Assembly (NCBI GenBank): GCA_011389815.1
Contig: JAABTP010000001.1
Span: forward strand, 1,003-25,002
Reading direction: 5' to 3'
DNA: 24,000 nt
From: Desulfobulbaceae bacterium
GTDB lineage: Bacteria; Desulfobacterota; Desulfobulbia; Desulfobulbales; Desulfobulbaceae
The translations under genes were made by a program, and so were the position numbers. The notes below the pieces were generated by a model. It worked only from the letters and a program-made list of their open reading frames with translations, did not search any database and had not been told where the DNA came from. Shown here piece by piece: positions 3,337 to 24,000 of this stretch. Every line of letters starts with the position of its first letter. Position 1 is the stretch's first letter.

Positions 3337-3411
3337 GACCTACCGTTCTGTTGCGTACAGGACGGATTATTCTTACTACGTACGAAATAAACTGTAAAGA
3401 GGTGAGAGAGT

Positions 3412-3594
3412 ATGTTCGGACTCGGAATGCCTGAAATGATTATCATCCTGGTTATTGTTGTTATTATTTTCGGGGCTGGAAAACTGCCTGAAATTGGTTC
3501 TGGTATCGGAAAAGGGATCAAGAATTTCAAAGATGCCACCAAGAGCGATGATGACCCGAAACCCATAGAAGACAGCAGTAGCAAGGAAAGCTGA
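3412..3594 (+). CDS. tatA: Twin-arginine translocase subunit TatA/E
   Basis: 60 aa: [42 protein letters not shown]... This is the canonical TatA TM helix, FG hinge and amphipathic helix. GAGAG lies upstream of the ATG. Confidence 0.9.
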
Positions 3595-3646
3595 AAAGAT
3601 TAAAAAAAATGCTGTTTAATATGGATAACGTGAAGAGAGGACTTGT

Positions 3647-3901
3647 ATGTTCGGACTCGGAACCCCTGAACTTGTTGTTATAATGACTATTGCCTTCCTG
3701 CTCTTTGGTGGAAAGAAATTACCAGAGATTGGCTCTGGCCTTGGCAAGGCCATAACTTCGTTTAAAAAGGGACTAGGTGAGGTTGAGGATACTGCTGGCT
3801 TGGGAGAAATGACCAAGAAGCTTCCTGGTGTTCGGAAGGTCAATGCGGTGCAGGAAAAGATTGAGAAAGCAAAAAATGTTGGTAAGATGATAACCAAATA
3901 G
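3647..3901 (+). CDS. Second TatA/E-family translocase subunit (longer paralog, possibly TatB-like role)
   Basis: 84 aa: [43 protein letters not shown]... It is homologous to the upstream tatA over the first 45 aa and has a longer charged tail. AGAGG lies upstream of the ATG. Confidence 0.8.
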   Translation: MFGLGTPELVVIMTIAFLLFGGKKLPEIGSGLGKAITSFKKGLGEVEDTAGLGEMTKKLPGVRKVNAVQEKIEKAKNVGKMITK

Positions 3902-3942: not shown

Positions 3943-3967
3943 GTAGGGCAGACCTCTGTGTCTGCCC
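3943..3967. terminator. Hairpin between convergent tatA paralog and trpS; its head resembles the GTAGGGGC repeat family
   Basis: GTA-GGGCAGAC-ctctgt-GTCTGCCC: an 8-bp perfect stem with a 6-nt loop in the 74-bp gap between two convergent stops. There is no clear U-tract. Confidence 0.5.
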
Positions 3968-3975
3968 GGCCTTGC

Positions 3976-5750: not shown

Positions 5751-7244
5751 ATGTTTATTGAAAAAAATGTAAGAAAAATTCTTCTTCTCTTTGTTTTTCT
5801 GTTTTTATGCAGCTGTGCATTTATGCCACCTGCTGATAACGACAATGAAGTGGCGATCACCATTCTTCAAATGAATGACGTGTATGAGATTGATCCGGTA
5901 AATGGCGGCAAAGAAGGAGGGCTTGCCCGGGTTGCCACTCTCCGTGATCAACTTCTCAGGCGCAATCCGGACACGATTACAGTCCTTGCTGGTGATCTTT
6001 TCAGTCCTTCGGCTTTGGGGACAGCACCCTATAAAGACGGGCGTCTCAACGGCAAACAGATGGTTGCGACCATGAATGCCTTGGGGCTTGATTACATCAC
6101 CTTTGGTAATCATGAGTTTGATTTGAAAAAAGGACCTTTTTACGATCGTCTTAAGGAATCTAAGTTTACCTGGATTTCCAGTAATTGTTTTACAGAAAAG
6201 AGAGGTACCTTTCCTGGAGTTGTTGAGGAGAAGGTCATTGATATCAAAGGAGTCAAAATAGGCATCTTTGGTCTCACTCTGCCAAAAACACAGACAGATT
6301 ATGTAACTTATAAAGATCCTTTTGCAGCAGCAGAACAAAAAGTGGCTGAGCTGCGCCCAAAGGTAGATATCCTTCTCGCCCTGACCCATCTCAATAAGGA
6401 TGATGATATTCAGCTGGCCAGTAGGTTCCCTGAGATTGATCTCATCCTCGGTGGTCATGAGCATGAGAATATGCAGTTCTGGCGGGGTAAGGATTTCACC
6501 CCGATATTCAAGGCGGATGCTAATGCCCGCACCGTGTATATTCATAATCTGCGCTATAGTGCAAGCACTGACAAGAAGCTGGACATCTCTTCCGAACTGT
6601 ACCGAATTACTGATGAGCTGTCTGATCAGCCCAAGACCGCAGCAGTGGTCAAGAAATGGCGGGAGATTGGCTATGCTGGTTTTGGCAAAGAGGGGCTCCA
6701 GCCTGACCGGGTTGTGACCACCACTGACGTGGAATTGGACGGACGGGAGGCCAGTGTGCGGAATTTTTCCACTAAACTTACTGATCTCATTGCCCAGGCC
6801 TTTCTCTCTGTTTCAGAAGAGGCTCAACTGTCTTTCTACAACGGTGGTTCGATCCGCTTTGATGACATTCTGCCTGCCGGAGATATTACGGAATACGATA
6901 TTATCAGAATTTTACCCTTTGGAGGGGATATCGTTACCGTTACTATGCAAGGTTCTCTGCTTGAGCAGACTCTCATCCAGGGGAAGGCAAGCAAAGGGGA
7001 GGGCGGTTTCCTCCAAACCGGCAATGTCAGTGGCGGAGAAGAGGGGGATCCTTGGTTGATTGGCGGCAAGGAGCTTGATCCAGATACTGAATACGCTGTG
7101 GCGGTGCTGGATTATCTGGTAAAGATTGGTGATGATAAACTGAAATTTTTGGTAAATAATCCTGACGTGCCGATCATTGCTGATAATGGGGATGTGCGAA
7201 AGGCCCTGATTGCTAAACTGAAAAAAAGATTTTCAGAGCAATAA
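5751..7244 (+). CDS. Secreted/lipoprotein bifunctional metallophosphatase / 5'-nucleotidase (UshA-like)
   Basis: 497 aa. Signal peptide with a lipobox-like FLCSC. Calcineurin-type metallophosphoesterase motifs are NDVYE, GDLFS, GNHEFD and GGHEH, followed by a 5'-nucleotidase C-terminal-like domain. Confidence 0.85.
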   Translation: MFIEKNVRKILLLFVFLFLCSCAFMPPADNDNEVAITILQMNDVYEIDPVNGGKEGGLARVATLRDQLLRRNPDTITVLAGDLFSPSALGTAPYKDGRLNGKQMVATMNALGLDYITFGNHEFDLKKGPFYDRLKESKFTWISSNCFTEKRGTFPGVVEEKVIDIKGVKIGIFGLTLPKTQTDYVTYKDPFAAAEQKVAELRPKVDILLALTHLNKDDDIQLASRFPEIDLILGGHEHENMQFWRGKDFTPIFKADANARTVYIHNLRYSASTDKKLDISSELYRITDELSDQPKTAAVVKKWREIGYAGFGKEGLQPDRVVTTTDVELDGREASVRNFSTKLTDLIAQAFLSVSEEAQLSFYNGGSIRFDDILPAGDITEYDIIRILPFGGDIVTVTMQGSLLEQTLIQGKASKGEGGFLQTGNVSGGEEGDPWLIGGKELDPDTEYAVAVLDYLVKIGDDKLKFLVNNPDVPIIADNGDVRKALIAKLKKRFSEQ

Positions 7245-9020: not shown

Positions 9021-9048
9021 GTAAGGGCACGGCACGCCGTGCCCCTAC
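9021..9048. repeat. 28-bp palindromic REP-like element (GTAGGGGC...GCCCCTAC family), copy 1
   Basis: GTAAGGGCACGGCACGCCGTGCCCCTAC. It matches the perfect palindrome at 23651-23678 at 26 of 28 positions. It lies between the ADH stop and the SD of the CNNM gene. Confidence 0.8.
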
Positions 9049-10720: not shown

Positions 10721-10790
10721 GTAGGGGCGAATCTTGTATTCGATTCGCCCTTGATGAAGAGCAAAAAGGGCAACCGCCGGTTGCCCCTAC
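10721..10790. repeat. Composite REP-like element: GTAGGGGC head, two internal hairpins, GCCCCTAC tail
   Basis: GTAGGGGC-GAATC-ttgtattc-GATTC-GCCC ... GGGCAACC-gc-CGGTTGCCCCTAC. It has the same 8-nt termini as the 28-bp palindromes at 9021 and 23651. Confidence 0.7.
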
Positions 10791-10931: not shown

Positions 10932-11140
10932 GTAACTTCTCAATAAGTGGTGGTAATAAATAAAATCAGGATGTTATAGTAACCAGAAAGATGCATAAGC
11001 ATAATTCGTGCCGAAACAGCAATATCTTTATTAACAATAGTTTAGCGATTCAAGCCTAACGGCACTGTATAAAATCTCCTGAAAAATATGACATGTAACC
11101 TATTGAAATTATAGAACACCACCAGTTATTGAGAAGTTAC
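10932..11140. mobile_element. MITE-like non-autonomous element (209 bp, AT-rich, no ORF)
   Basis: Terminal inverted repeats are GTAACTTCTCAATAAGTGGTGGT (10932-10954) and the reverse complement of 11118-11140 (GTAACTTCTCAATAACTGGTGGT), matching at 22 of 23 positions. They are flanked by the direct repeat CCTTGTTC (10924-10931 and 11141-11148). Confidence 0.6.
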
Positions 11141-12487: not shown

Positions 12488-12585
12488 GGGACGTGGAGCT
12501 GGTGCCGTGTTTGCCTGGGGTGTTATCCCAGGATGGCTAAATACAGCCCCTTCTGCTCTGAAGGGCAAACCGGGAGAGTAGGGCA

Positions 12586-13380
12586 ATCGGGTCAGAGGGA
12601 GCCGAAGCTCCCGTCTGCCCACAGAACCGTGCGTACGGGTCCGTACACGGCTCCTCATGTTACTTTTGTTTACAAACAGTACAACTAAAGCTTCTTAAGT
12701 TCGCAAACCTTTCCCTTTATCTCATTTGCTTTCCATTTGGGTTGCTATTTCATCGTTCCGTACTTGCTTTGTTATAAGAAGATTTATACGTTTCTTCTTC
12801 AAAGAAAGTTCCGATGGCTGAACTCGTAACAACCACAATATTGAGATTCCGGTTCTCAATAACATGCTTCACCCTTCGGCTCCAGCATCTCTGCCACTTT
12901 CCGATAGTTTTACCCTCAGATACGTCACCGCATCATCATCGGCTACCGATTTTACGCCTACTATGGCTTCATCTGAAGACCCTCTGTCCATAACGGGAAC
13001 ATTGCTGCCCCGCTTAGGGTACGGCTGTCGCAGTTACAACCGACCCGGCATGCAGACGGCCCTTCACCGGGTAAGATCACGCACTTTCATTGCCCACCTA
13101 CCTCCTTTACCCGGCAGAGTTACGAAAAGGATATCGGGTTTCGGTGGTCGTTGGCACCTCACCCCTCTGCAAAGCCTACCAGAGGTTCACACCAAGTTTA
13201 GGTGGCAAATTTGACTAAGGCTTCCTTCAGATCCTTCATTGGCTCATACTCACCGGTTTATCCCTCCTCGGGCAGCTCACATGAGTTTCTTCGGGCACCC
13301 TTGCCTTCGTCTACATATTCCCTCCTTTCAGGGTTATGACTGGACTTTCACCAGCTAGTTCGTGACCATGCCGGTCGCAC
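12586..13380 (-). mobile_element. ORF-less (IEP-deleted) group II intron, about 795 nt; the 3' boundary is uncertain by a few nt
   Basis: The minus strand begins GTGCGACCGGCATGGTCACGAACTAGCTGGTGAAAGTCC... (GUGYG 5' end at 13380). It contains a domain V hairpin at 12653-12624 followed by a short domain VI-like hairpin (GGGAGC-ttcg-GCTCCC), and ends ...CCCGAT. No minus-strand ORF of 60 aa or more exists between 12659 and 13399, so no reverse transcriptase is encoded. Confidence 0.8.
12624..12653 (-). ncRNA. Group II intron domain V
   Basis: GAGCCGUG-UACG-gacc-CGUA-CG-CACGGUUC. It has the AGC triad, a two-helix hairpin and a 2-nt 3' bulge, which is the conserved catalytic domain V layout. It is 30 nt, shorter than the usual 34. 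Confidence 0.8.
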
Positions 13381-13400
13381 AACGGCGTGCCGTGCCCGTT
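13381..13400. repeat. Half of a REP-like palindrome split by the intron (the other half is GTAGGGCA at 12578-12585)
   Basis: The minus strand reads AAACGGGCACGGCACGCCGTT immediately 5' of the intron. The 16 nt GGGCACGGCACGCCGT are identical to the copy at 9021. The 3' flank of the intron reads TGCCCTAC. Confidence 0.6.
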
Positions 13401-17072: not shown

Positions 17073-17792
17073 ATGAACGATCTGAAGTTGTCTGATAATG
17101 GGAGAAATGTGTTTAACTTCCCGGAAGCAATCCCTGGCCAGTTCATTATCACGGACAAGGAGCTTGACCAGAATGTGTATGAGCAGTTCATGACTGAGCT
17201 GGAATGGCTTGATCCTCAGCCGGATTACGCCATGTTGCTTCGTCAAGGCCAAGAGCTGTCCGGTAGGGCGTTGTCTCTTGCTCAAAAAAAGAATATTCTG
17301 GCACAACTCGCCCGCTGGGGTACGGTAGATGCCTATCAGCTTGTGCAGAAGTATTGCAAGTGCTGTGATTCATCCCTCGAACCCTGGAGTCAGGTAGCCC
17401 TGTATGAATGTCGGATGCGGATGGAGTCGGACCTGCTTGATGAGCCTGTGGGCCTGATCTCAACCGGGCTGGGTGGAGATGGTGAGCGGTTGCGCTATAT
17501 CTTTGTCCTTGCCTTGCAAGCGGAGTGTCCGGGAGAGGAAAAGCAGCAGGAGATGCGGGAGGCCTTGGATATGGTCTGCCGAAAGCATCGTTCGCGTGTG
17601 GAAGAGTTGCAATTCCATCCTTCTTATCTTTTCGTGCAGGTGCTTGTGCCGATAGATGTTGCGGCCGGAAAGGTGATTGAAGGCAGTATCGCCCGGTTGA
17701 ATCGGCAGGAGGAGCAGGTAGGACAGAACTACATGGCCACTAACGTTGCTGTGCCGACCGAGGAGGAGATACAGAAGTTTCTGGGTGGTTAG
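17073..17792 (+). CDS. Hypothetical protein (239 aa), no family recognised
   Basis: The ORF looks protein-like in composition. The ATG at 17073 is preceded by GGAG (17060-17063); the track's GTG at 17022 is an alternative start. It lies directly downstream of the bEBP gene on the same strand. Confidence 0.6.
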   Translation: MNDLKLSDNGRNVFNFPEAIPGQFIITDKELDQNVYEQFMTELEWLDPQPDYAMLLRQGQELSGRALSLAQKKNILAQLARWGTVDAYQLVQKYCKCCDSSLEPWSQVALYECRMRMESDLLDEPVGLISTGLGGDGERLRYIFVLALQAECPGEEKQQEMREALDMVCRKHRSRVEELQFHPSYLFVQVLVPIDVAAGKVIEGSIARLNRQEEQVGQNYMATNVAVPTEEEIQKFLGG

Positions 17793-18862
17793 AGCCGAAT
17801 ATCCAGCACATCCACCAGTCGTCCGCTGTAGCTGTTCCTGACTGTCTCCTTTAAGGCGGCATAGTCATTTACCCGGATGCTGAGGCTGCTGACAGCCGAG
17901 TCCGCAAAGCCCGGCAGGGTGCATCCGCCATTCTCACGCACCGGCACGACAGTGCCTGTCCTTCCCTTTTCCTCCATATCCAGCAAACTGAAGAGCAGCA
18001 CCTTCTTGCGGTGGTCAAGGATGACCTGAATGCGGAGCGTCTCGTTCGCTGTCACCGTGCCGCCAATGACCGAGACATAAGGGCTGGCCGCGTTGCCGGT
18101 GAGGATGCCGTGCTCTGGCGGATCAGGCTGATTCAGGCCGCTCAACGTAAGGGGGCTGCGCAGCATCTGTCGGCAGGCGCCGGTACGCAGAGTACCGTGC
18201 GCGCTGTAGCGGGTCGAGACTGAGACCGTGTACTCGTTATTCCACGGCTGGCTCTGGGCAGGGATGTCAGGTATGAGCATGATGCTGCTCTTCTCAATCA
18301 TGCCAAAGCGGCTCTGGACGGCACTGCCGCTCTCGGTGCCCTTGATGAGACACTGGCTGTCGGGCTGCTTGGGGTCAAAGTCCAGATTGCGGCCCCCGAG
18401 CCGGAGCATGCCATCAGGATTCAGGACATTGTCCAGGTCGAGCACCGCATCGCGGGCCGTGCTGATCACTGGTTTCTTTTCGCGCACAGGCAGGCGTTCT
18501 GTGCGGGCGGATTGACGGATAGCCCTGGTAAAGGGCGGTGAGATGCGCACATTGACATTCAGGCATTGATCAATCGGCGGCAGCGGGTCGTTCGGGTGGT
18601 TCAGCCTGCCGCTGAAAGAGACAAACCAGCTCCAGCTCCCCTCCTTGGTCACCTGCTCACCGTTGAGGAGTCGCTCCTGCACGGCCTTGTCCTCGGCCCG
18701 GAGGATGGTCAGGATGTCTGCCTTGCTGAAGTTGGGGTGCTGCAGGGCGATGTCGGCAGCGATATCCTCAATGCCTGCTGAGCTGCGAGGCACGGCAAGG
18801 ATGCGCCAGGACGGGGGAGTGGTCATTGCGTTTACTTCGGGTCGCCATTGGATTGTCTGCAT
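17789..18862 (-). CDS. HU-like DNA-binding domain (HU_2-type) + DUF4469 (Ig-like) protein with an extra C-terminal domain
   Basis: The ATG at 18862 is preceded by AGAGGAGG with a 6-nt spacer. The N-terminus (...SAGIEDIAADIALQHPNFSKADILTILRAEDKAVQERLLNGEQV...SFSGRL) fits the HU-fold fusion family. The middle part (...GMLRLGGRNLDFDP...SIMLIPDIP...NEYTVSVSTRYS) fits the DUF4469 pattern. Assigned from memory of family patterns only. Confidence 0.6.
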   Translation of the reverse strand: MQTIQWRPEVNAMTTPPSWRILAVPRSSAGIEDIAADIALQHPNFSKADILTILRAEDKAVQERLLNGEQVTKEGSWSWFVSFSGRLNHPNDPLPPIDQCLNVNVRISPPFTRAIRQSARTERLPVREKKPVISTARDAVLDLDNVLNPDGMLRLGGRNLDFDPKQPDSQCLIKGTESGSAVQSRFGMIEKSSIMLIPDIPAQSQPWNNEYTVSVSTRYSAHGTLRTGACRQMLRSPLTLSGLNQPDPPEHGILTGNAASPYVSVIGGTVTANETLRIQVILDHRKKVLLFSLLDMEEKGRTGTVVPVRENGGCTLPGFADSAVSSLSIRVNDYAALKETVRNSYSGRLVDVLDIRL

Positions 18863-18920
18863 GAGGGGCCTCCTCTTTGATGTATTTGGTTGAGAGAGTC
18901 GGACGAGTTTATAATGACGT

Positions 18921-18949
18921 ATCGTAAGGCGGGCGGAGGAGGGTGTCAA
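18921..18949 (-). promoter_or_regulatory. Candidate sigma-70 promoter of the HU-like/DUF4469 gene
   Basis: The minus strand reads TTGACA (18949-18944), a 17-nt spacer, then TACGAT (18926-18921). It lies between the tandem-repeat array and the SD/ATG. Confidence 0.35.
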
Positions 18950-18971
18950 CCAGTTTGCAAGGAAGGGTTCC

Positions 18972-19086
18972 ACTATGGTGGAAAGGATGGTTGCACTGTA
19001 GTGGAACTGGGATTTGGACTATAGTGGAAAGAGTAGTTGCACTATGGTGTAAGGAATGGTTGGACTATAGTGGGGATATGTTTCGT
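18972..19086. repeat. Five tandem 23-bp direct repeats (iteron-like), plus a degenerate sixth unit at 18949-18971
   Basis: Units start at 18972, 18995, 19018, 19041 and 19064, an exact 23-bp phase. They read ACTATGGTGGAAAGGATGGTTGC / ACTGTAGTGGAACTGGGATTTGG / ACTATAGTGGAAAGAGTAGTTGC / ACTATGGTGTAAGGAATGGTTGG / ACTATAGTGGGGATATGTTTCGT. The core (C)CACTATAGTGG is itself palindromic. Confidence 0.85.
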
Positions 19087-19112
19087 AAGGACGTTTCGCG
19101 AAATGCCCTTAC
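19085..19112 (-). terminator. Imperfect palindrome directly after the STAND gene stop (possible terminator)
   Basis: GTAAGGACGTTTCG/CGAAATGCCCTTAC has two mismatches in 14-bp arms. There is no U-tract. Confidence 0.35.
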
Positions 19113-19121
19113 CTTGCGCCG

Positions 19122-21077
19122 CTATGCTTCCTTCGCCCCTTGCCGTTTTGCCCGCACCTGTGCCAATCCCTCGCGCCATTCTTCCAATTTGGGATGACCG
19201 ATCTCCTCTTCAATCCGCACGGCCTGGCTGATGTATTCCTCTGCCTTGGCAAGGTCGCCCATGTCTTCGTAGGTGCGACCGAGGTTCCAGCAGCTTTGCG
19301 CCTCCCCGGCCCTGTCTCCCAGCTCGCGTCGGATTGCCAATCCTTGTTTTAAATACTCCAAGGCTGATGACCTATTGCCTTGAGTACGGTAAATTGCGGC
19401 TATGTTGGTTAAGGCTGCACTTTCACCGATTCTATCGCTGCTCTCCATGCTGATAGGCAGGCTTTGTTGTAAATAGGTCAATGCTGTTTCATAGTCGCCT
19501 ATCTTCATATAAACCATAGCCATATTATTTAATGTTGTGCCTTCTCCAACCCTGTCACCTGCCTCTCGCTGCATCATCAGACTTTGCGTGTAACATTGCA
19601 AAGCCTGTTCATAATTGCATTGTATGTCATAAATGAGACCGATATTATTCAGAGTAAGACTTTCGCCCTGTCTGTATCCCCATTCACGATGAATCAGCAA
19701 ACTCTGCTCGTAATATTCCAGTGCTCTTGCATACTCACCGAGCTTCCAGCAAGTTTCACCTAATTCATTGAGACACCAGCTTTCATCTCGCCTCTCTTCT
19801 TTCAACCTTGCCGCATTCAATCTCATGCTTACAATGGTCAGCTTTTCTGTCCAATATCCCTGTCGGTCTAAGTAAATGATAATTGCTCGTACCAAGGCTT
19901 GCACTTCATCCAACAGCCTACTGTTCAGGCAGCTTTCCGTAAGGCGCAGGCAGTGCGCCCTTTCTTTGTCCAGGCAGGCATAGCCCTCCAATCCAGCTTG
20001 GCTTTGTTCCTCGCAGAAATAAATATAATAGGCAGCCAGCCGCTCCAAGCTCTCCTTGCTCAAAGCCAACTCGGTGCGAGAGTAGGTATGAATCAGCGCA
20101 TGGCTTATCTGCCAGCGTTCCTCCTTGCGCTCCATCATGCCATAATTGACCAACTCGTTTAATGCCTTGCGGCCTCGGCGTTCATCGCACTCAAATATGG
20201 CACCAACCGGTTCAGAAGCAATCGGCGCAAAGGCCAAGCAACCTGCCGCGCCCAGCGCAAGTCGGGCATCATCGCTCACCTGAGCTACGCTGCGGCGCAG
20301 CAGCAAGGCTGCATTCTCTTCTTGATGAGAACCGCTACCCAGCTCCTTGAGTGGCTCCCTTTCTATCCAGTGCAGGTAGTCCGCCGCACTCTCGCCCGTG
20401 CTTCTGAGATACCGACCAGCGAGTTGCAAGGCTACTGGCCATCCGCCAAGAATGTTGCAGATACCCTGCACGCTTGCATCATCATCTACCTCCCCGCTAT
20501 ACTTGCGAAATGCCTCTGCTGCCTCTTGCTCATACAGCGGTGTAAGATCAAGCCGGAAACCCAGCGCATCTGATCTTTTCCTACTGGTGATCAATACTCC
20601 GCATGTGCCACCCAGTCTAAGCATGGTTGGTAAGTCGTCTGCTTCCTCCGTACCATCCAAGATAAGCAGCATCTTTCTACCCGCCAAGGCAAGCAGCACA
20701 GCAGTTTCCAAAGTCGGCTCAGGTTCAATATTCAAAGATTGGGCAATATGTTTTAAGGCATGTGCTATTTCTGGCTGATGGTAAAAACTATGGGAGATAA
20801 TGCCATCCGGGAACCTGCTTTCTTCCAATTTATGCACCGCCTGAGCTGCCAATGCACTTTTACCTATGCCGCCCGGTCCGCAGATGGTTATAATCTTGCC
20901 GGGACGCAATGACTCAAAGAGCAGGGCAAGCTCTTCTTCACGACCGACAAAACAGTCATTAGGTAGAGGAAGTTGACATGGGACTTGAGAAGGCTCAGGA
21001 ATGTAGCAAGCAATGGTTCCATCGCCTTGCGCAATATTGACGTCTTTCGTGCCGAAGGAAATGGACTTGTTTATCAT
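19122..21077 (-). CDS. STAND NTPase: NB-ARC (AP-ATPase) domain + C-terminal TPR array, with no recognisable effector domain
   Basis: 651 aa. It has FVGREEELALL, Walker A GPGGIGKSALA, Walker B MLLILDGTEE, VLITSR, and the GxP motif LGGWPVALQLAG. About five kinesin-light-chain-type TPRs are present (...LNNIGLIYDIQCNYEQALQCY..., ...LNNMAMVYMKIGDYETALTYL..., ...LTNIAAIYRTQGNRSSALEYL...). Only about 40 aa precede the ATPase. Confidence 0.9.
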   Translation of the reverse strand: MINKSISFGTKDVNIAQGDGTIACYIPEPSQVPCQLPLPNDCFVGREEELALLFESLRPGKIITICGPGGIGKSALAAQAVHKLEESRFPDGIISHSFYHQPEIAHALKHIAQSLNIEPEPTLETAVLLALAGRKMLLILDGTEEADDLPTMLRLGGTCGVLITSRKRSDALGFRLDLTPLYEQEAAEAFRKYSGEVDDDASVQGICNILGGWPVALQLAGRYLRSTGESAADYLHWIEREPLKELGSGSHQEENAALLLRRSVAQVSDDARLALGAAGCLAFAPIASEPVGAIFECDERRGRKALNELVNYGMMERKEERWQISHALIHTYSRTELALSKESLERLAAYYIYFCEEQSQAGLEGYACLDKERAHCLRLTESCLNSRLLDEVQALVRAIIIYLDRQGYWTEKLTIVSMRLNAARLKEERRDESWCLNELGETCWKLGEYARALEYYEQSLLIHREWGYRQGESLTLNNIGLIYDIQCNYEQALQCYTQSLMMQREAGDRVGEGTTLNNMAMVYMKIGDYETALTYLQQSLPISMESSDRIGESAALTNIAAIYRTQGNRSSALEYLKQGLAIRRELGDRAGEAQSCWNLGRTYEDMGDLAKAEEYISQAVRIEEEIGHPKLEEWREGLAQVRAKRQGAKEA

Positions 21078-21910: not shown

Positions 21911-24000
21911 ATGGCACGCTTTCCCATGCAGCTCAACTACCCAGGCAACCTCCCCATCACCGACCGCAAGGACGAGATCGTCCAGGCCGTTCGGGATAAT
22001 CAGGTCATCGTTATTGCAGGTGATACCGGCTCCGGCAAGACAACCCAGCTCCCCAAGATGTGCCTGGAAGCAGGTCGGGCAGGGGAGGGGGCCATGATCG
22101 GCTGTACCCAGCCCCGCCGTATTGCCGCCCTGTCGGTGACCGAGCGGGTTCAGGAGGAGCTGGGGCAGGCCCGGACGGTGGGGTCCAAGATTCGCTTTCA
22201 GGATCGCACCGGCCCGAAAACCCGGATCAAGTTCATGACCGACGGGATTCTGCTGGCCGAGACCCGGGGCGACCGCGATCTGCGGGCCTACGACACCCTG
22301 ATCATTGACGAGGCCCATGAGCGCAGCCTGAACATCGACTTTCTGCTCGGCTACCTGCATCAATTGCTGGCCCGCCGCCATGACCTCAAGCTGATCATTG
22401 CCTCGGCCACCATTGATACTGAAAAATTCAGTAAGCATTTCCATGATGCCCCGATTATCCAGGTGGAAGGACGCACCTATCCGGTCACGGTGGAATACTG
22501 CCCCCCGGACAACGAGGACGATGAAAGCAGTCAGGATATTGACCGGTTGGTCGCTGATCAGATTGTCAGGCTTATGGCTCGGCCCGGCGGGGATATCCTG
22601 ACCTTTCTCCCCACGGAGCGGGACATCCTGGACACTGTGGAACTGCTGCGCAGGGAACTGGCAGATCGCGCCCTGATCCTGCCCCTGTTCGGACGGCTCC
22701 AGGGCGGGGAGCAGCGGCGTATCTTCCGTTCTGCCCGGCAGCGCAAGATCATCGTGGCCACCAATGTGGCAGAGACCTCCATCACGGTGCCGGGCATAGA
22801 ATGCGTGGTGGATACCGGCCTGGCGCGGATCGCCCATTATAATGTGCGGGCCGGGACCACCCATCTGCCGGTGGCCCGGATTTCCAGGGCCAGTTGTGAT
22901 CAGCGGGCAGGCCGTTGCGGTCGGGTCGGGCCGGGGCGTTGCATCCGCTTGTACAGCGAGGAGGATTACCTTGCCCGTGATGAATTCACTCTGCCTGAGA
23001 TCCAGCGTTCCAATCTGGCCGAGGTTATCCTGCAGATGCTCAGCCTGCGTCTGCCCGAACCGCGCAACTTCCCTTTTATCGATCCGCCTGCCCCCAGAGC
23101 GGTCAATGACGGCTTCCGTATTCTTCGGGAACTGGGTGCCCTTGACAGCGAGCAGCGGCTCACCCGGCAAGGCAGGATCATGGCCCGCCTGCCTCTGGAC
23201 CCGCGTATTTCCCGGATGATCATTGAGGGTGCGGAGCTGGGCGTGCTCCGGGAAACCGCGATCATTGCTGCGGCCCTGGCGATTCAGGATCCCCGTGTCC
23301 AACCGCCGGATAAGCTGGAAAAGGCCCGGCAGGCCCACCGCGCCTTTCATTATCCTGGCTCGGATGTCCTGACCCTGGTTAATATGTGGGATGCCTGTCG
23401 AGGTGAAGCCCTGTCTTCGCCCGGTTCGTCTGATGACGGGCAGGGCCGCCGGGATGATAAAGAGCAGACACGCAGGTCTGCCCCTACGCCGTCCGCCGGG
23501 CAGCTGCGCCGTTTTTGCGAGGCTAATTTCTGCTCCTGGCAACGGATGCGGGAGTGGTTTGATATCCATGATCAGATTCTCCGTATCCTCCAGCAGCATA
23601 AGGAGTTTGCCGGTGCCCTTGATCGCATTGGTGATTCGCACAAGGACGAAGTAGGGGCACGGCATGCCGTGCCCCTACCGGAATCGCAAGATTCTTCGGT
23701 CAAAACATCTGCCCCTACAGCCCCGGCCCTGGTACATCAGGCCCTGACCGCAGGTTTTCTCCGCAATATTGCCCTGCGCAAGGAGAAGAATACCTACCAG
23801 ATCTCCGGCAACCGGGAGGCCATGCTCTTTCCCGGTTCCGGCCTGTATAATAAGGGAGGGCAGTGGATCGTGGCAGCGGATTTTGTCCATACCTCGCAGC
23901 TCTTTGCCCGCATGGCCGCCACCATTGAAGTGGACTGGCTGGAACGCCTGGGCGGTGACCTCTGCAAACGTTCCTACTCGGACCCGCATTGGCAGAAAAA
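21911..24000 (+). CDS. hrpA: ATP-dependent RNA helicase HrpA (DEAH-box), N-terminal about 696 codons; 3' end outside window
   Basis: Hand translation of frame 2 gives MARFPMQLNYPGNLPITDRKDEIVQAVRDNQVIVIAGDTGSGKTTQLPKMCLEAGR...GCTQPRRIAA...TDGILLAE...IIDEAHERSLNIDFLLGYL...IASATID...VATNVAETSITVPGI...QRAGRCGR...SYSDPHWQK. It is open to base 24000 and absent from the track because it has no stop. The start could be ATG 21911 or ATG 21926. Confidence 0.9.
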   Translation, partial: MARFPMQLNYPGNLPITDRKDEIVQAVRDNQVIVIAGDTGSGKTTQLPKMCLEAGRAGEGAMIGCTQPRRIAALSVTERVQEELGQARTVGSKIRFQDRTGPKTRIKFMTDGILLAETRGDRDLRAYDTLIIDEAHERSLNIDFLLGYLHQLLARRHDLKLIIASATIDTEKFSKHFHDAPIIQVEGRTYPVTVEYCPPDNEDDESSQDIDRLVADQIVRLMARPGGDILTFLPTERDILDTVELLRRELADRALILPLFGRLQGGEQRRIFRSARQRKIIVATNVAETSITVPGIECVVDTGLARIAHYNVRAGTTHLPVARISRASCDQRAGRCGRVGPGRCIRLYSEEDYLARDEFTLPEIQRSNLAEVILQMLSLRLPEPRNFPFIDPPAPRAVNDGFRILRELGALDSEQRLTRQGRIMARLPLDPRISRMIIEGAELGVLRETAIIAAALAIQDPRVQPPDKLEKARQAHRAFHYPGSDVLTLVNMWDACRGEALSSPGSSDDGQGRRDDKEQTRRSAPTPSAGQLRRFCEANFCSWQRMREWFDIHDQILRILQQHKEFAGALDRIGDSHKDEVGARHAVPLPESQDSSVKTSAPTAPALVHQALTAGFLRNIALRKEKNTYQISGNREAMLFPGSGLYNKGGQWIVAADFVHTSQLFARMAATIEVDWLERLGGDLCKRSYSDPHWQK
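23651..23720. repeat. REP-like module inside the hrpA coding sequence
   Basis: A perfect 28-bp palindrome GTAGGGGCACGGCATGCCGTGCCCCTAC (23651-23678) is followed by GAATC-gcaa-GATTC and a terminal GCCCCTACAG (23711-23720). It has the same building blocks as the intergenic composite at 10721-10790. It is translated in frame as VGARHAVPLPESQDSSVKTSAPT. Confidence 0.8.

Follow-up and report, generated by a model that had tools for sequence, protein, structure and literature searches.

A gene-less group II intron, probably of subgroup IIC and inserted at a REP-like palindrome, downstream of yefM-yoeB in a Desulfobulbaceae bacterium

We analysed a 24,000-nt stretch of the genome of a Desulfobulbaceae bacterium (assembly GCA_011389815.1, contig JAABTP010000001.1, positions 1,003 to 25,002 of the forward strand; hereafter referred to as the window). 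Directly downstream of the yefM-yoeB toxin-antitoxin operon, this stretch contains a 795-nt element that an earlier, sequence-only reading had interpreted as a group II intron devoid of an open reading frame (ORF). The present analysis confirmed, at the level of sequence and predicted structure, that the element is a group II intron, i.e. a mobile element of the self-splicing type. It is probable (approximately 0.7) that it represents a non-autonomous intron of subgroup IIC: a ribozyme-only derivative of a ~2.04-kb retroelement, generated by a ~1.25-kb deletion within domain IV, which landed at a palindrome resembling repetitive extragenic palindromic (REP) sequences and which depends on a protein supplied in trans.

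Comparison with the group II intron models of Rfam, proposed in the sequence-only reading, was made by a covariance-model scan of the whole window using the curated gathering thresholds. Only two matches were obtained in total, both within the intron and both on the minus strand: RF02001 (group-II-D1D4-3) scored 85 bits over 13242-13076 (E = 5.5e-16; cut-off 32), and RF00029 (Intron_gpII), which covers domains V and VI, scored 47.7 bits over 12655-12586 (cut-off 40). The intron occupies positions 12586-13380 of the minus strand, extending from the GUGCG motif (13380-13376) to the terminal ...CCCGAU (12586), in agreement with the group II consensus ends GUGYG and AY, and it is collinear with full-length introns of ~2.04 kb found in Desulfobulbales-type genomes and in others. 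The strand, the coordinates and both ends (GTGCG and ...CCCGAT) had thus been placed correctly in the first inspection.

Domains I-III of the ribozyme, together with the junction J3/4, correspond to intron nt 1-519 (12862-13380), as supported by an RNAalifold consensus and by identity to related introns; the earlier estimate for these large domains was ~500 nt. The segment of domain I matched by RF02001 (13076-13242) includes the epsilon′ AGGAA motif, AUCUGAAGGAAGC, at 13232-13220. The remnant of domain IV (12654-12861) comprises (i) the stem of domain IVa (nt ~520-626), (ii) a decayed gene start, (iii) a deletion junction and (iv) the last few codons of the lost gene, and its G+C content is 0.355, compared with 0.53 for domains I-III. 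Domain V (GAGCCGTGTACGGACCCGTACGCACGGTTC; 12624-12653) is composed of a 9-bp basal helix, an AGC triad, an AC bulge, a 3-bp distal helix and a GACC loop; it lies where it had been predicted and, at 30 nt, is indeed shorter than 34 nt. The short hairpin noticed after it proved to be domain VI (12586-12622), in which the basal helix measures 3 bp and the branch point, a bulged A at 12592, is 6 nt from the 3′ splice site. With the J2/3 sequence CAUAGUA also present, every catalytic landmark (GUGCG, AGC triad and bulge, branch-point A) is intact, and the intron forms 152 of the 159 pairs of the consensus derived from 25 family members, the range for full-length copies being 147-158.

The exon-binding sites (EBS) of the intron and the intron-binding sites (IBS) of its flanks, whose assignment had likewise been recommended, were identified by covariation across 35 family members with readable flanks, G-U pairs being counted. 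Intron nt 229, 230 and 231 (13152-13150) can pair with exon positions -1, -2 and -3 in 33, 35 and 34 of these 35 relatives, respectively, and the column most complementary to the first base of the 3′ exon (26/35) is nt 274 (13107), which is itself variable. Within the window both pairings are perfect: EBS1 AACG (nt 229-232; 13149-13152), presented in the loop GGUG-CCAACGAC-CACC, pairs with CGTT (IBS1, 13384-13381), and EBS3 A (13107) pairs with T (IBS3, 12585). As regards EBS2, no variable column within intron nt 1-340 follows exon positions -4 to -6. Two further introns with an AACG loop follow TGTT (L131) and AGTT (L135), and a small hairpin precedes each of these sites. The covariation therefore fixes both splice sites independently and places the window intron in its cognate site; the predicted junction of the ligated exons reads ...CGCCGTT/TGCCCTAC..., i.e. 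...ACGCCGTT/TGCCCTACTC....

No minus-strand ORF longer than 47 aa is located wholly inside the intron, and a tblastn search of the 24-kb window with the intron protein of a relative gave no match. This agrees with the earlier statement that the element has no minus-strand ORF of 60 aa or more and lacks the reverse transcriptase (RT)/maturase. Two ORFs that overlap the intron (one of 116 aa, antisense, and one of 92 aa, starting in domain V) have no Pfam match, and for this reason they were treated as spurious.

Relatives of the intron were collected by scanning one genome per species for the exact 30-nt domain V, which yielded at least 119 loci, with hosts mainly among Methylococcales, Chromatiaceae, Desulfobacterota and Spirochaetes. 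The full-length relatives (at least seven) are 2039-2058 nt long and carry within domain IV a gene for an RT/maturase of 447-448 aa with RVT_1 and GIIM domains. The closest, L135 (GCA_024712225.1), shares 83.7% identity over intron nt 1-664, and L120, from a metagenome-assembled genome (MAG) of Candidatus Electrothrix, shares 82.6% over the same segment; over nt 715-795 the identity of both is 98-99%. Further full-length relatives are L110, L031, L089 and L007, from various MAGs, and L067 of Desulfogranum japonicum DSM 18378.

Nucleotides 1-656 and 715-795 of the window intron align to L120, whose nt 672-1973 are unmatched, and ~1.25 kb is absent from domain IV relative to the full-length introns. 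The sequence across the deletion junction is GTTGTACTGTTTGTAAAC. Alignment with the seven full-length relatives located the remnant of the start codon, ATGAAATAG, at 12753-12745, with a stop at codon 3; ~28 decayed codons follow, with homology extending to about intron nt 705, and beyond the junction the last few codons survive, overlapping the approach to domain V. The sequence-only reading had correctly described the domain IV remnant as AT-rich, but the ATGGAAAGCAAATGA that it singled out is not the true start of the lost gene, being its second in-frame ATG. The retention of domain IVa, of a start codon and of both decayed and terminal codons shows that the intron is not primitively gene-less but an internal deletion derivative of a protein-coding retroelement.

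The class of the intron, which had been left open, can now be given as probable IIC by RNA type and class C by the proteins of its relatives, within a divergent subgroup characterized by an AGC triad and larger domains I-III. The hallmarks of IIC introns include a distal stem of domain V that is 2 bp shorter than in IIA and IIB introns, a CGC triad and, in the epsilon′ region, a bulge with a conserved AGGAA (PMC1702495), besides an abbreviated ribozyme and the lack of an EBS2-IBS2 pairing; in domain VI, a base of 3 bp and a tail of 6 nt are likewise typical (PMC4748821). In the window intron, (i) the distal helix has 3 bp and is thus 2 bp short, (ii) AUCUGAAGGAAGC aligns with the RF02001 consensus aaUCUGAAGGAAgcc, (iii) the EBS1-IBS1 pairing has the 3-4 bp expected of IIC, three positions covarying strongly and the fourth pairing in the window, accompanied by a single EBS3-IBS3 pair, and (iv) domain VI shows the 3-bp base and 6-nt tail.

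Two canonical IIC introns, L137 of Anoxybacillus and L138 of Burkholderia vietnamiensis, retrieved through their GsI-IIC-like proteins, served as controls. RF02001 matches them at 143 bits, as against 85 bits for the window intron, and the model therefore represents domain I of IIC introns. The domain V triad of both controls is CCGCCG (CGC), and the inner 24 nt of domain V are identical in L138 and the window. The gene of the relatives starts at intron nt ~625-642, compared with nt 471 in L138 and 555 in L137; the lineage of the window intron therefore possesses a larger ribozyme, in agreement with the initial impression.

As the window intron has no gene, the class of its protein was assessed on the RT/maturases of the relatives (436-448 aa, RVT_1 and GIIM, without an endonuclease domain), by comparison with solved structures. 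These proteins score 332-365 bits against the RT of GsI-IIC (6ar1; IIC) and 283-306 bits against the Eubacterium rectale maturase (7uim; IIC), but only 117-140 bits against LtrA (IIA) and 118-130 bits against the T.el4h protein (IIB), which rules out the IIA/mitochondrial-like and IIB/chloroplast-like classes. The IIC-specific RNA features and the behaviour of RF02001 make classes D, E and F, for which there are no solved structures to compare, appear unlikely. The intron D.p.I1 has Desulfotalea psychrophila as its host. In the analysis of Toro and Martínez-Abarca (PMC3552965), the main class C node does not include all class C proteins, that of D.p.I1 being among the exceptions, and the AGC-triad subgroup may correspond to these outlying proteins.

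The palindromes to which the insertion site had been compared are real: the window contains two intact, intergenic, 28-bp REP-like copies, GTAAGGGCACGGCACGCCGTGCCCCTAC at 9021-9048 (DNA fold -11.6 kcal/mol, z -3.3) and GTAGGGGCACGGCATGCCGTGCCCCTAC at 23651-23678 (-15.3 kcal/mol, z -5.2). The flanks of the intron read ...TAAACGGGCACGGCACGCCGTT-intron-TGCCCTACTC..., which gives AAACGGGCACGGCACGCCGTT+TGCCCTAC when joined; the uninterrupted form of the site would be ...GGGCACGGCACGCCGTTTGCCCTAC.... The 5′ exon piece, ACGGGCACGGCACGCCGTT (13381-13399, minus strand), contains IBS1 and has an exact 16-mer in common with positions 9025-9040 of the first palindrome. This 16-mer, GGGCACGGCACGCCGT, abuts the intron and elsewhere in the window occurs only in palindrome copies, with a chance expectation of ~0. 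The 3′ exon piece, TGCCCTAC (12578-12585, minus strand), contains IBS3 and equals the family tail TGCCCCTAC minus one C, so that the joined flanks carry a TGCCC(C)TAC tail. Compared with the intact palindromes, the rebuilt site carries two additional T residues where the exons join, lacks one C and has a degenerate left end, AAAC in place of GTAA/GTAG.

The proposal that the flanks rebuild a near-copy of the 28-bp palindrome is thus upheld as regards family origin, by the 16-mer and the tail, while "near-copy" has to be qualified in view of the indels, the degenerate left end and the weak fold. Of the two positions suggested for the homing event, the flanks favour the first: no intact hairpin precedes the intron, which sits inside the 3′ arm of a degenerate member of the palindrome family. 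A textbook IIC target consists of a ~12-bp stem and a spacer, followed by IBS1 (PMC10190682). Among the relatives, sites of this classic form were found for L015, L017, L065, L131 and L135, and insertions inside larger palindromes for L067 (21-bp arms), L087 (18-bp), L062 (13-bp) and L063. Insertion inside larger palindromes was tried as a rule for the family and rejected: only 4 of 34 sites beat all shuffles and the median equals that of the control, and it is therefore not a general rule.

Within the 24 kb, the palindrome census comprises two intact copies, one split copy and at least four related hairpins. The latter (3944-3968, 10768-10790, 19085-19112 and 23464-23487) have GTAGGG.../...CCCCTAC ends and differing inner stems, and the sequence at 23710-23718 also shares these ends. 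REP sequences are short palindromes that recur in many intergenic regions and share a conserved GTAG-type head, and the combination of a conserved head with variable stems suggests that the palindromes of the window form a REP-type family. The hairpin at 19085-19112 is preceded by a tandem array (18933-19073), in which a 23-nt unit (...TGGAAAGGATGGTTGCACTGTAGTGG...) occurs head to tail at least five times, located between the minus-strand ORFs 17789-18973 and 19122-21077.

Other repeats were observed at the insertion sites of relatives. L100 and L111, from different Desulfobacter-type MAGs, occupy two positions of what is apparently one palindromic element, after ...TTTGCGCAGATGCATTGGGCG and after the CGGCAGCGGACAGCAGATGCG that follows it; L111 is a degenerate fragment lacking part of domains I-III. 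A motif near AGCGTAGCG recurs by the insertion sites, on either side, in the Methylococcales-type loci L005, L007, L026, L041, L062, L064, L078, L094 and L101; it may represent either a repeat of the host or an element preferred as a target.

The dependence of the intron on a protein supplied in trans is suggested by the unequal decay of its parts. In domains I-III, the window intron is 83.4% identical to the seven full-length relatives, which are 84.1% identical among themselves; the corresponding values are 65.7% and 69.6% for domain IVa, and 56.1% and 79.6% for a 79-column remnant of the gene. Had domains I-III drifted like the gene remnant, a ribozyme identity of ~58% would be expected. 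Since the gene remnant has decayed while the ribozyme is conserved as in full-length relatives, a trans-dependent lineage is favoured, and the comparison suggests a non-autonomous lineage, mobilised in trans, that is still under constraint after gene loss.

Gene-less forms also occur elsewhere in the subgroup, which as a whole would account for at least three independent origins of such forms, and one of them has multiplied and crossed genera. This is an 850-nt form, present at different sites in one Methylococcales MAG (CAXXSE01; L036 at 5751-6600, L093 and L094), whose copies are 97-99% alike; the same MAG holds a full-length copy, L062, that is 90-91% identical to them. The same deletion form was found in a Cycloclasticus symbiont (L064, 632-1479; 88% identity), and an independent 801-nt gene-less form is present in a Desulfococcaceae genome. 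A Spirochaetaceae chromosome (OZ245363.1) contains short intron copies of 935-1108 nt (L082, L069, L021 and L034), together with L083 (5181-7546; 2366 nt), which consists of the short form interrupted at about nt 135 by ~1.4 kb; this may reflect a nested mobile element or a twintron.

The events behind the present arrangement may be outlined from the biology of IIC introns (PMC1702495, PMC10190682). An RNA-protein particle would have reverse-spliced into single-stranded DNA of the REP-like palindrome just past yoeB, the site being chosen by the EBS1 (AACG/CGTT) and EBS3 (A/T) pairings with probable assistance from the local hairpin. As the intron, in sense orientation, follows the yoeB stop codon and precedes a terminator-like hairpin, it would be transcribed by read-through as part of the 3′ untranslated region (UTR) of the yefM-yoeB mRNA. 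For efficient splicing and for any further movement, it would need the maturase/RT of a related intron of full length present in the same cell. The supplied maturase would presumably bind the retained domain IVa, the region bound by the protein of IIC introns (PMC10190682). No coding sequence is interrupted, and splicing would therefore matter only to the intron, leaving the host indifferent.

Several observations weigh against the reading of the element as a targeted, trans-dependent IIC intron. The domain V triad is AGC (GAGCCG) and not CGC, both in the window and in all retrieved relatives. No full-length helper copy was detected in the 24-kb window by tblastn or among the retrieved public loci, and the nearest full-length relative, L135, is only 83.7% identical and belongs to another assembly. 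An exact scan of metagenome contigs for the 19-mer of the EBS1 loop, which might have revealed sibling copies, gave seven loci, only two of them introns (72-75% identical), and a scan of viral contigs for the deletion junction gave no match. Two MAGs carry identical intron copies, and there is no empty-site polymorphism showing recent movement. The argument for constraint depends on a remnant of 79 columns. As for the target, neither the rebuilt site (-6.2 kcal/mol, z -0.97; a weak hairpin) nor the 5′ exon alone (-3.5 kcal/mol, z -0.50) folds better than shuffled controls, and IBS1 overlaps the 3′ arm of the palindrome, unlike the ~12-bp stem and spacer of typical IIC targets.

The searches for helpers and empty sites had further results. 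The protein of a relative has at least 8000 homologues, and the three NCBI-sourced ones that were traced to contigs all belong to other assemblies; all contigs encoding an identical HisD or YoeB carry the same arrangement. The absence of helper and sibling copies weighs little, because the MAGs are fragmented and assemblies of this kind usually lose repeats. The sequence-only reading had envisaged either a master copy elsewhere or a fossil; the asymmetric decay favours the trans-dependent lineage, while the master copy was found neither in the window nor among the retrieved loci.

That the element is a dead fossil, i.e. a copy of the same origin which neither splices nor moves and persists as an inert, harmless 795 nt in the yoeB 3′ UTR, seems unlikely. 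The lack of a protein gene in the intron or the window, the lack of a helper or sibling in the collections searched, the gene remnant reduced to 56% identity with its stop at codon 3, the seven unformed pairs and the degenerate target hairpin would all suit such a relic, and IIC introns deprived of protein mostly self-splice poorly, by hydrolysis (PMC1702495, PMC4748821). However, domains I-III show no excess divergence (83.4% versus 84.1%) although the adjacent gene remnant has lost ~24 points. The catalytic elements (GUGCG, AGC triad with bulge, branch-point A and J2/3 CAUAGUA) are intact, the pairing of EBS1 and EBS3 with the flanks remains perfect, the number of pairs falls inside the range of full-length copies, and ORF-less forms of the lineage demonstrably multiply elsewhere.

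It is highly improbable that the palindrome was not the target, the likeness of the flanks being due to chance or to a REP-like element formed later around or beside the intron: although the rebuilt site is degenerate at its left end and can be derived only with two indels, the 5-6 bp that pair across the junction do not exceed what shuffles give (25/50), insertion in larger palindromes is clearly above chance at only 4 of 34 sites and TGCCCCTAC-like half sites are common in the window (13 at no more than one mismatch), the exact 16-mer GGGCACGGCACGCCGT, confined otherwise to palindrome copies (chance ~0), abuts the intron, the TGCCCTAC tail begins exactly at the first base of the 3′ exon in the right order and orientation (chance estimated from the half-site frequency at ~1e-3), and later formation of a REP would not place two halves precisely against the splice sites.

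The intron is located in a 913-nt gap between hisD and yoeB, in which no gene has been called on the source contig. On the minus strand, yefM (13925-13653; Pfam PF02604, 1.1e-13) and yoeB (13672-13400; PF06769, 2.1e-23) form the toxin-antitoxin operon, and the intron follows the yoeB stop codon (TAA, 13402-13400) after 19 nt in sense orientation, within the interval of 0-20 nt given earlier. A terminator-like hairpin, CCCTTCAGAGCAGAAGGG followed by GCTGTATTTA (12548-12565, minus strand), was identified by a consensus scan as a pattern match only; it lies downstream of the intron, at a distance of 20 nt, in the region where yoeB and hisD converge. A gene of the Uma2 family (PF05685; 14026-14589) adjoins yefM-yoeB in divergent orientation. 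Just upstream of hisD there is a 45-nt inverted repeat (10932-10976 and 11096-11140), whose arms are 78% complementary and 119 nt apart; a small mobile element is one possible explanation, a regulatory structure another. Farther away, the starts of two small tandem genes (3410-3457 and 3645-3692) share a 48-nt repeat encoding MFGLG(M/T)PE..., which we take to resemble TatA-type N-termini; the two genes are probably tandem paralogues.

The window intron is a further example of a selfish element of known kind, each of its ingredients having been described before. The location of IIC introns beside terminators, attC sites and other inverted repeats is well established (PMC4424553, PMC1702495). 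ORF-less group II introns of bacteria are rare and nearly always accompanied by related protein-coding copies (PMC4424553), and large surveys now catalogue them (PMC8919778). What may be regarded as mildly new is the enlarged IIC subgroup with its AGC triad, the fact that an IIC intron has lost its gene naturally, and the evidence for a persistence of gene-less forms under constraint. We tentatively suggest, at somewhat less than even odds, that the window intron belongs to a long-lived gene-less IIC lineage, comparable to miniature inverted-repeat transposable elements, which borrows a maturase/RT and prefers REP-like or nested palindromes. If this were true, ORF-less bacterial group II introns would be less rare and less ephemeral than surveys of RT genes suggest. 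The element bears on how often class C introns lose their gene yet remain constrained, and on short repeated palindromes, besides terminators and attC sites, as class C landing pads. It also provides, for annotation, a clean ribozyme-only intron of the kind overlooked by RT-based surveys and gene callers. For the host genes there is no obvious consequence, as no coding sequence is interrupted; an effect on the stability of the yefM-yoeB mRNA would be speculation.

In its choice of a repeated extragenic palindrome as landing site, the intron resembles the mobile elements that target REP sequences, among which 2 of 9 group II intron copies of Pseudomonas putida were REP-associated (Tobes and Pareja 2006, PMC1525189). 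Those elements are mostly insertion sequences, and the palindrome family of the window is one defined from 24 kb alone. A parallel in position is offered by the IIC-attC introns (S.ma.I2 lineage), class C introns that lie within a recurring imperfect palindrome, past the inner stem and before the outer 3′ arm. The window intron differs from them in its palindrome family and in the absence of an integron context from the window; moreover, IIC-attC introns are full-length and antisense to the cassette genes, whereas the window intron is ORF-less and in sense orientation to yoeB.

The cyanobacterial ORF-less introns compared here are of the chloroplast-like IIB type. The naturally ORF-less introns of Trichodesmium (dnaN) and Thermosynechococcus (PMC4424553, PMC12584367) resemble the window intron in that the ribozyme has been kept, the gene has been lost with remnants, and a related protein is expected to be needed; multi-copy gene-less forms also exist within the lineage of the window intron, in other genomes. 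The cited examples are cyanobacterial, together with the independent C.te.I1, whereas the window intron is of predicted IIC type and its helper copy was not found. In addition, ORF-less introns in housekeeping genes must splice for the benefit of the host, while the window intron lies in an untranslated region.

From the canonical IIC introns B.h.I1, O.i.I1, GsI-IIC and E.r. IIC (PMC1702495, PMC10190682, PMC4748821), the window intron differs in its triad (AGC and not CGC), its larger ribozyme, its lower RF02001 score (85 versus 143 bits) and its natural lack of a gene, as well as in its insertion point, which falls within the 3′ arm of a palindrome that is short and weak and not a few bases past a ~12-bp stem. 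It resembles them in (i) the short stem of domain V, the AGGAA motif, the EBS1 and EBS3 pairings and the geometry of domain VI, (ii) its intergenic position beside an inverted repeat downstream of a gene, and (iii) the endonuclease-less RT/maturases of its relatives, which are nearest to the RT of GsI-IIC, and the match of RF02001 to both.

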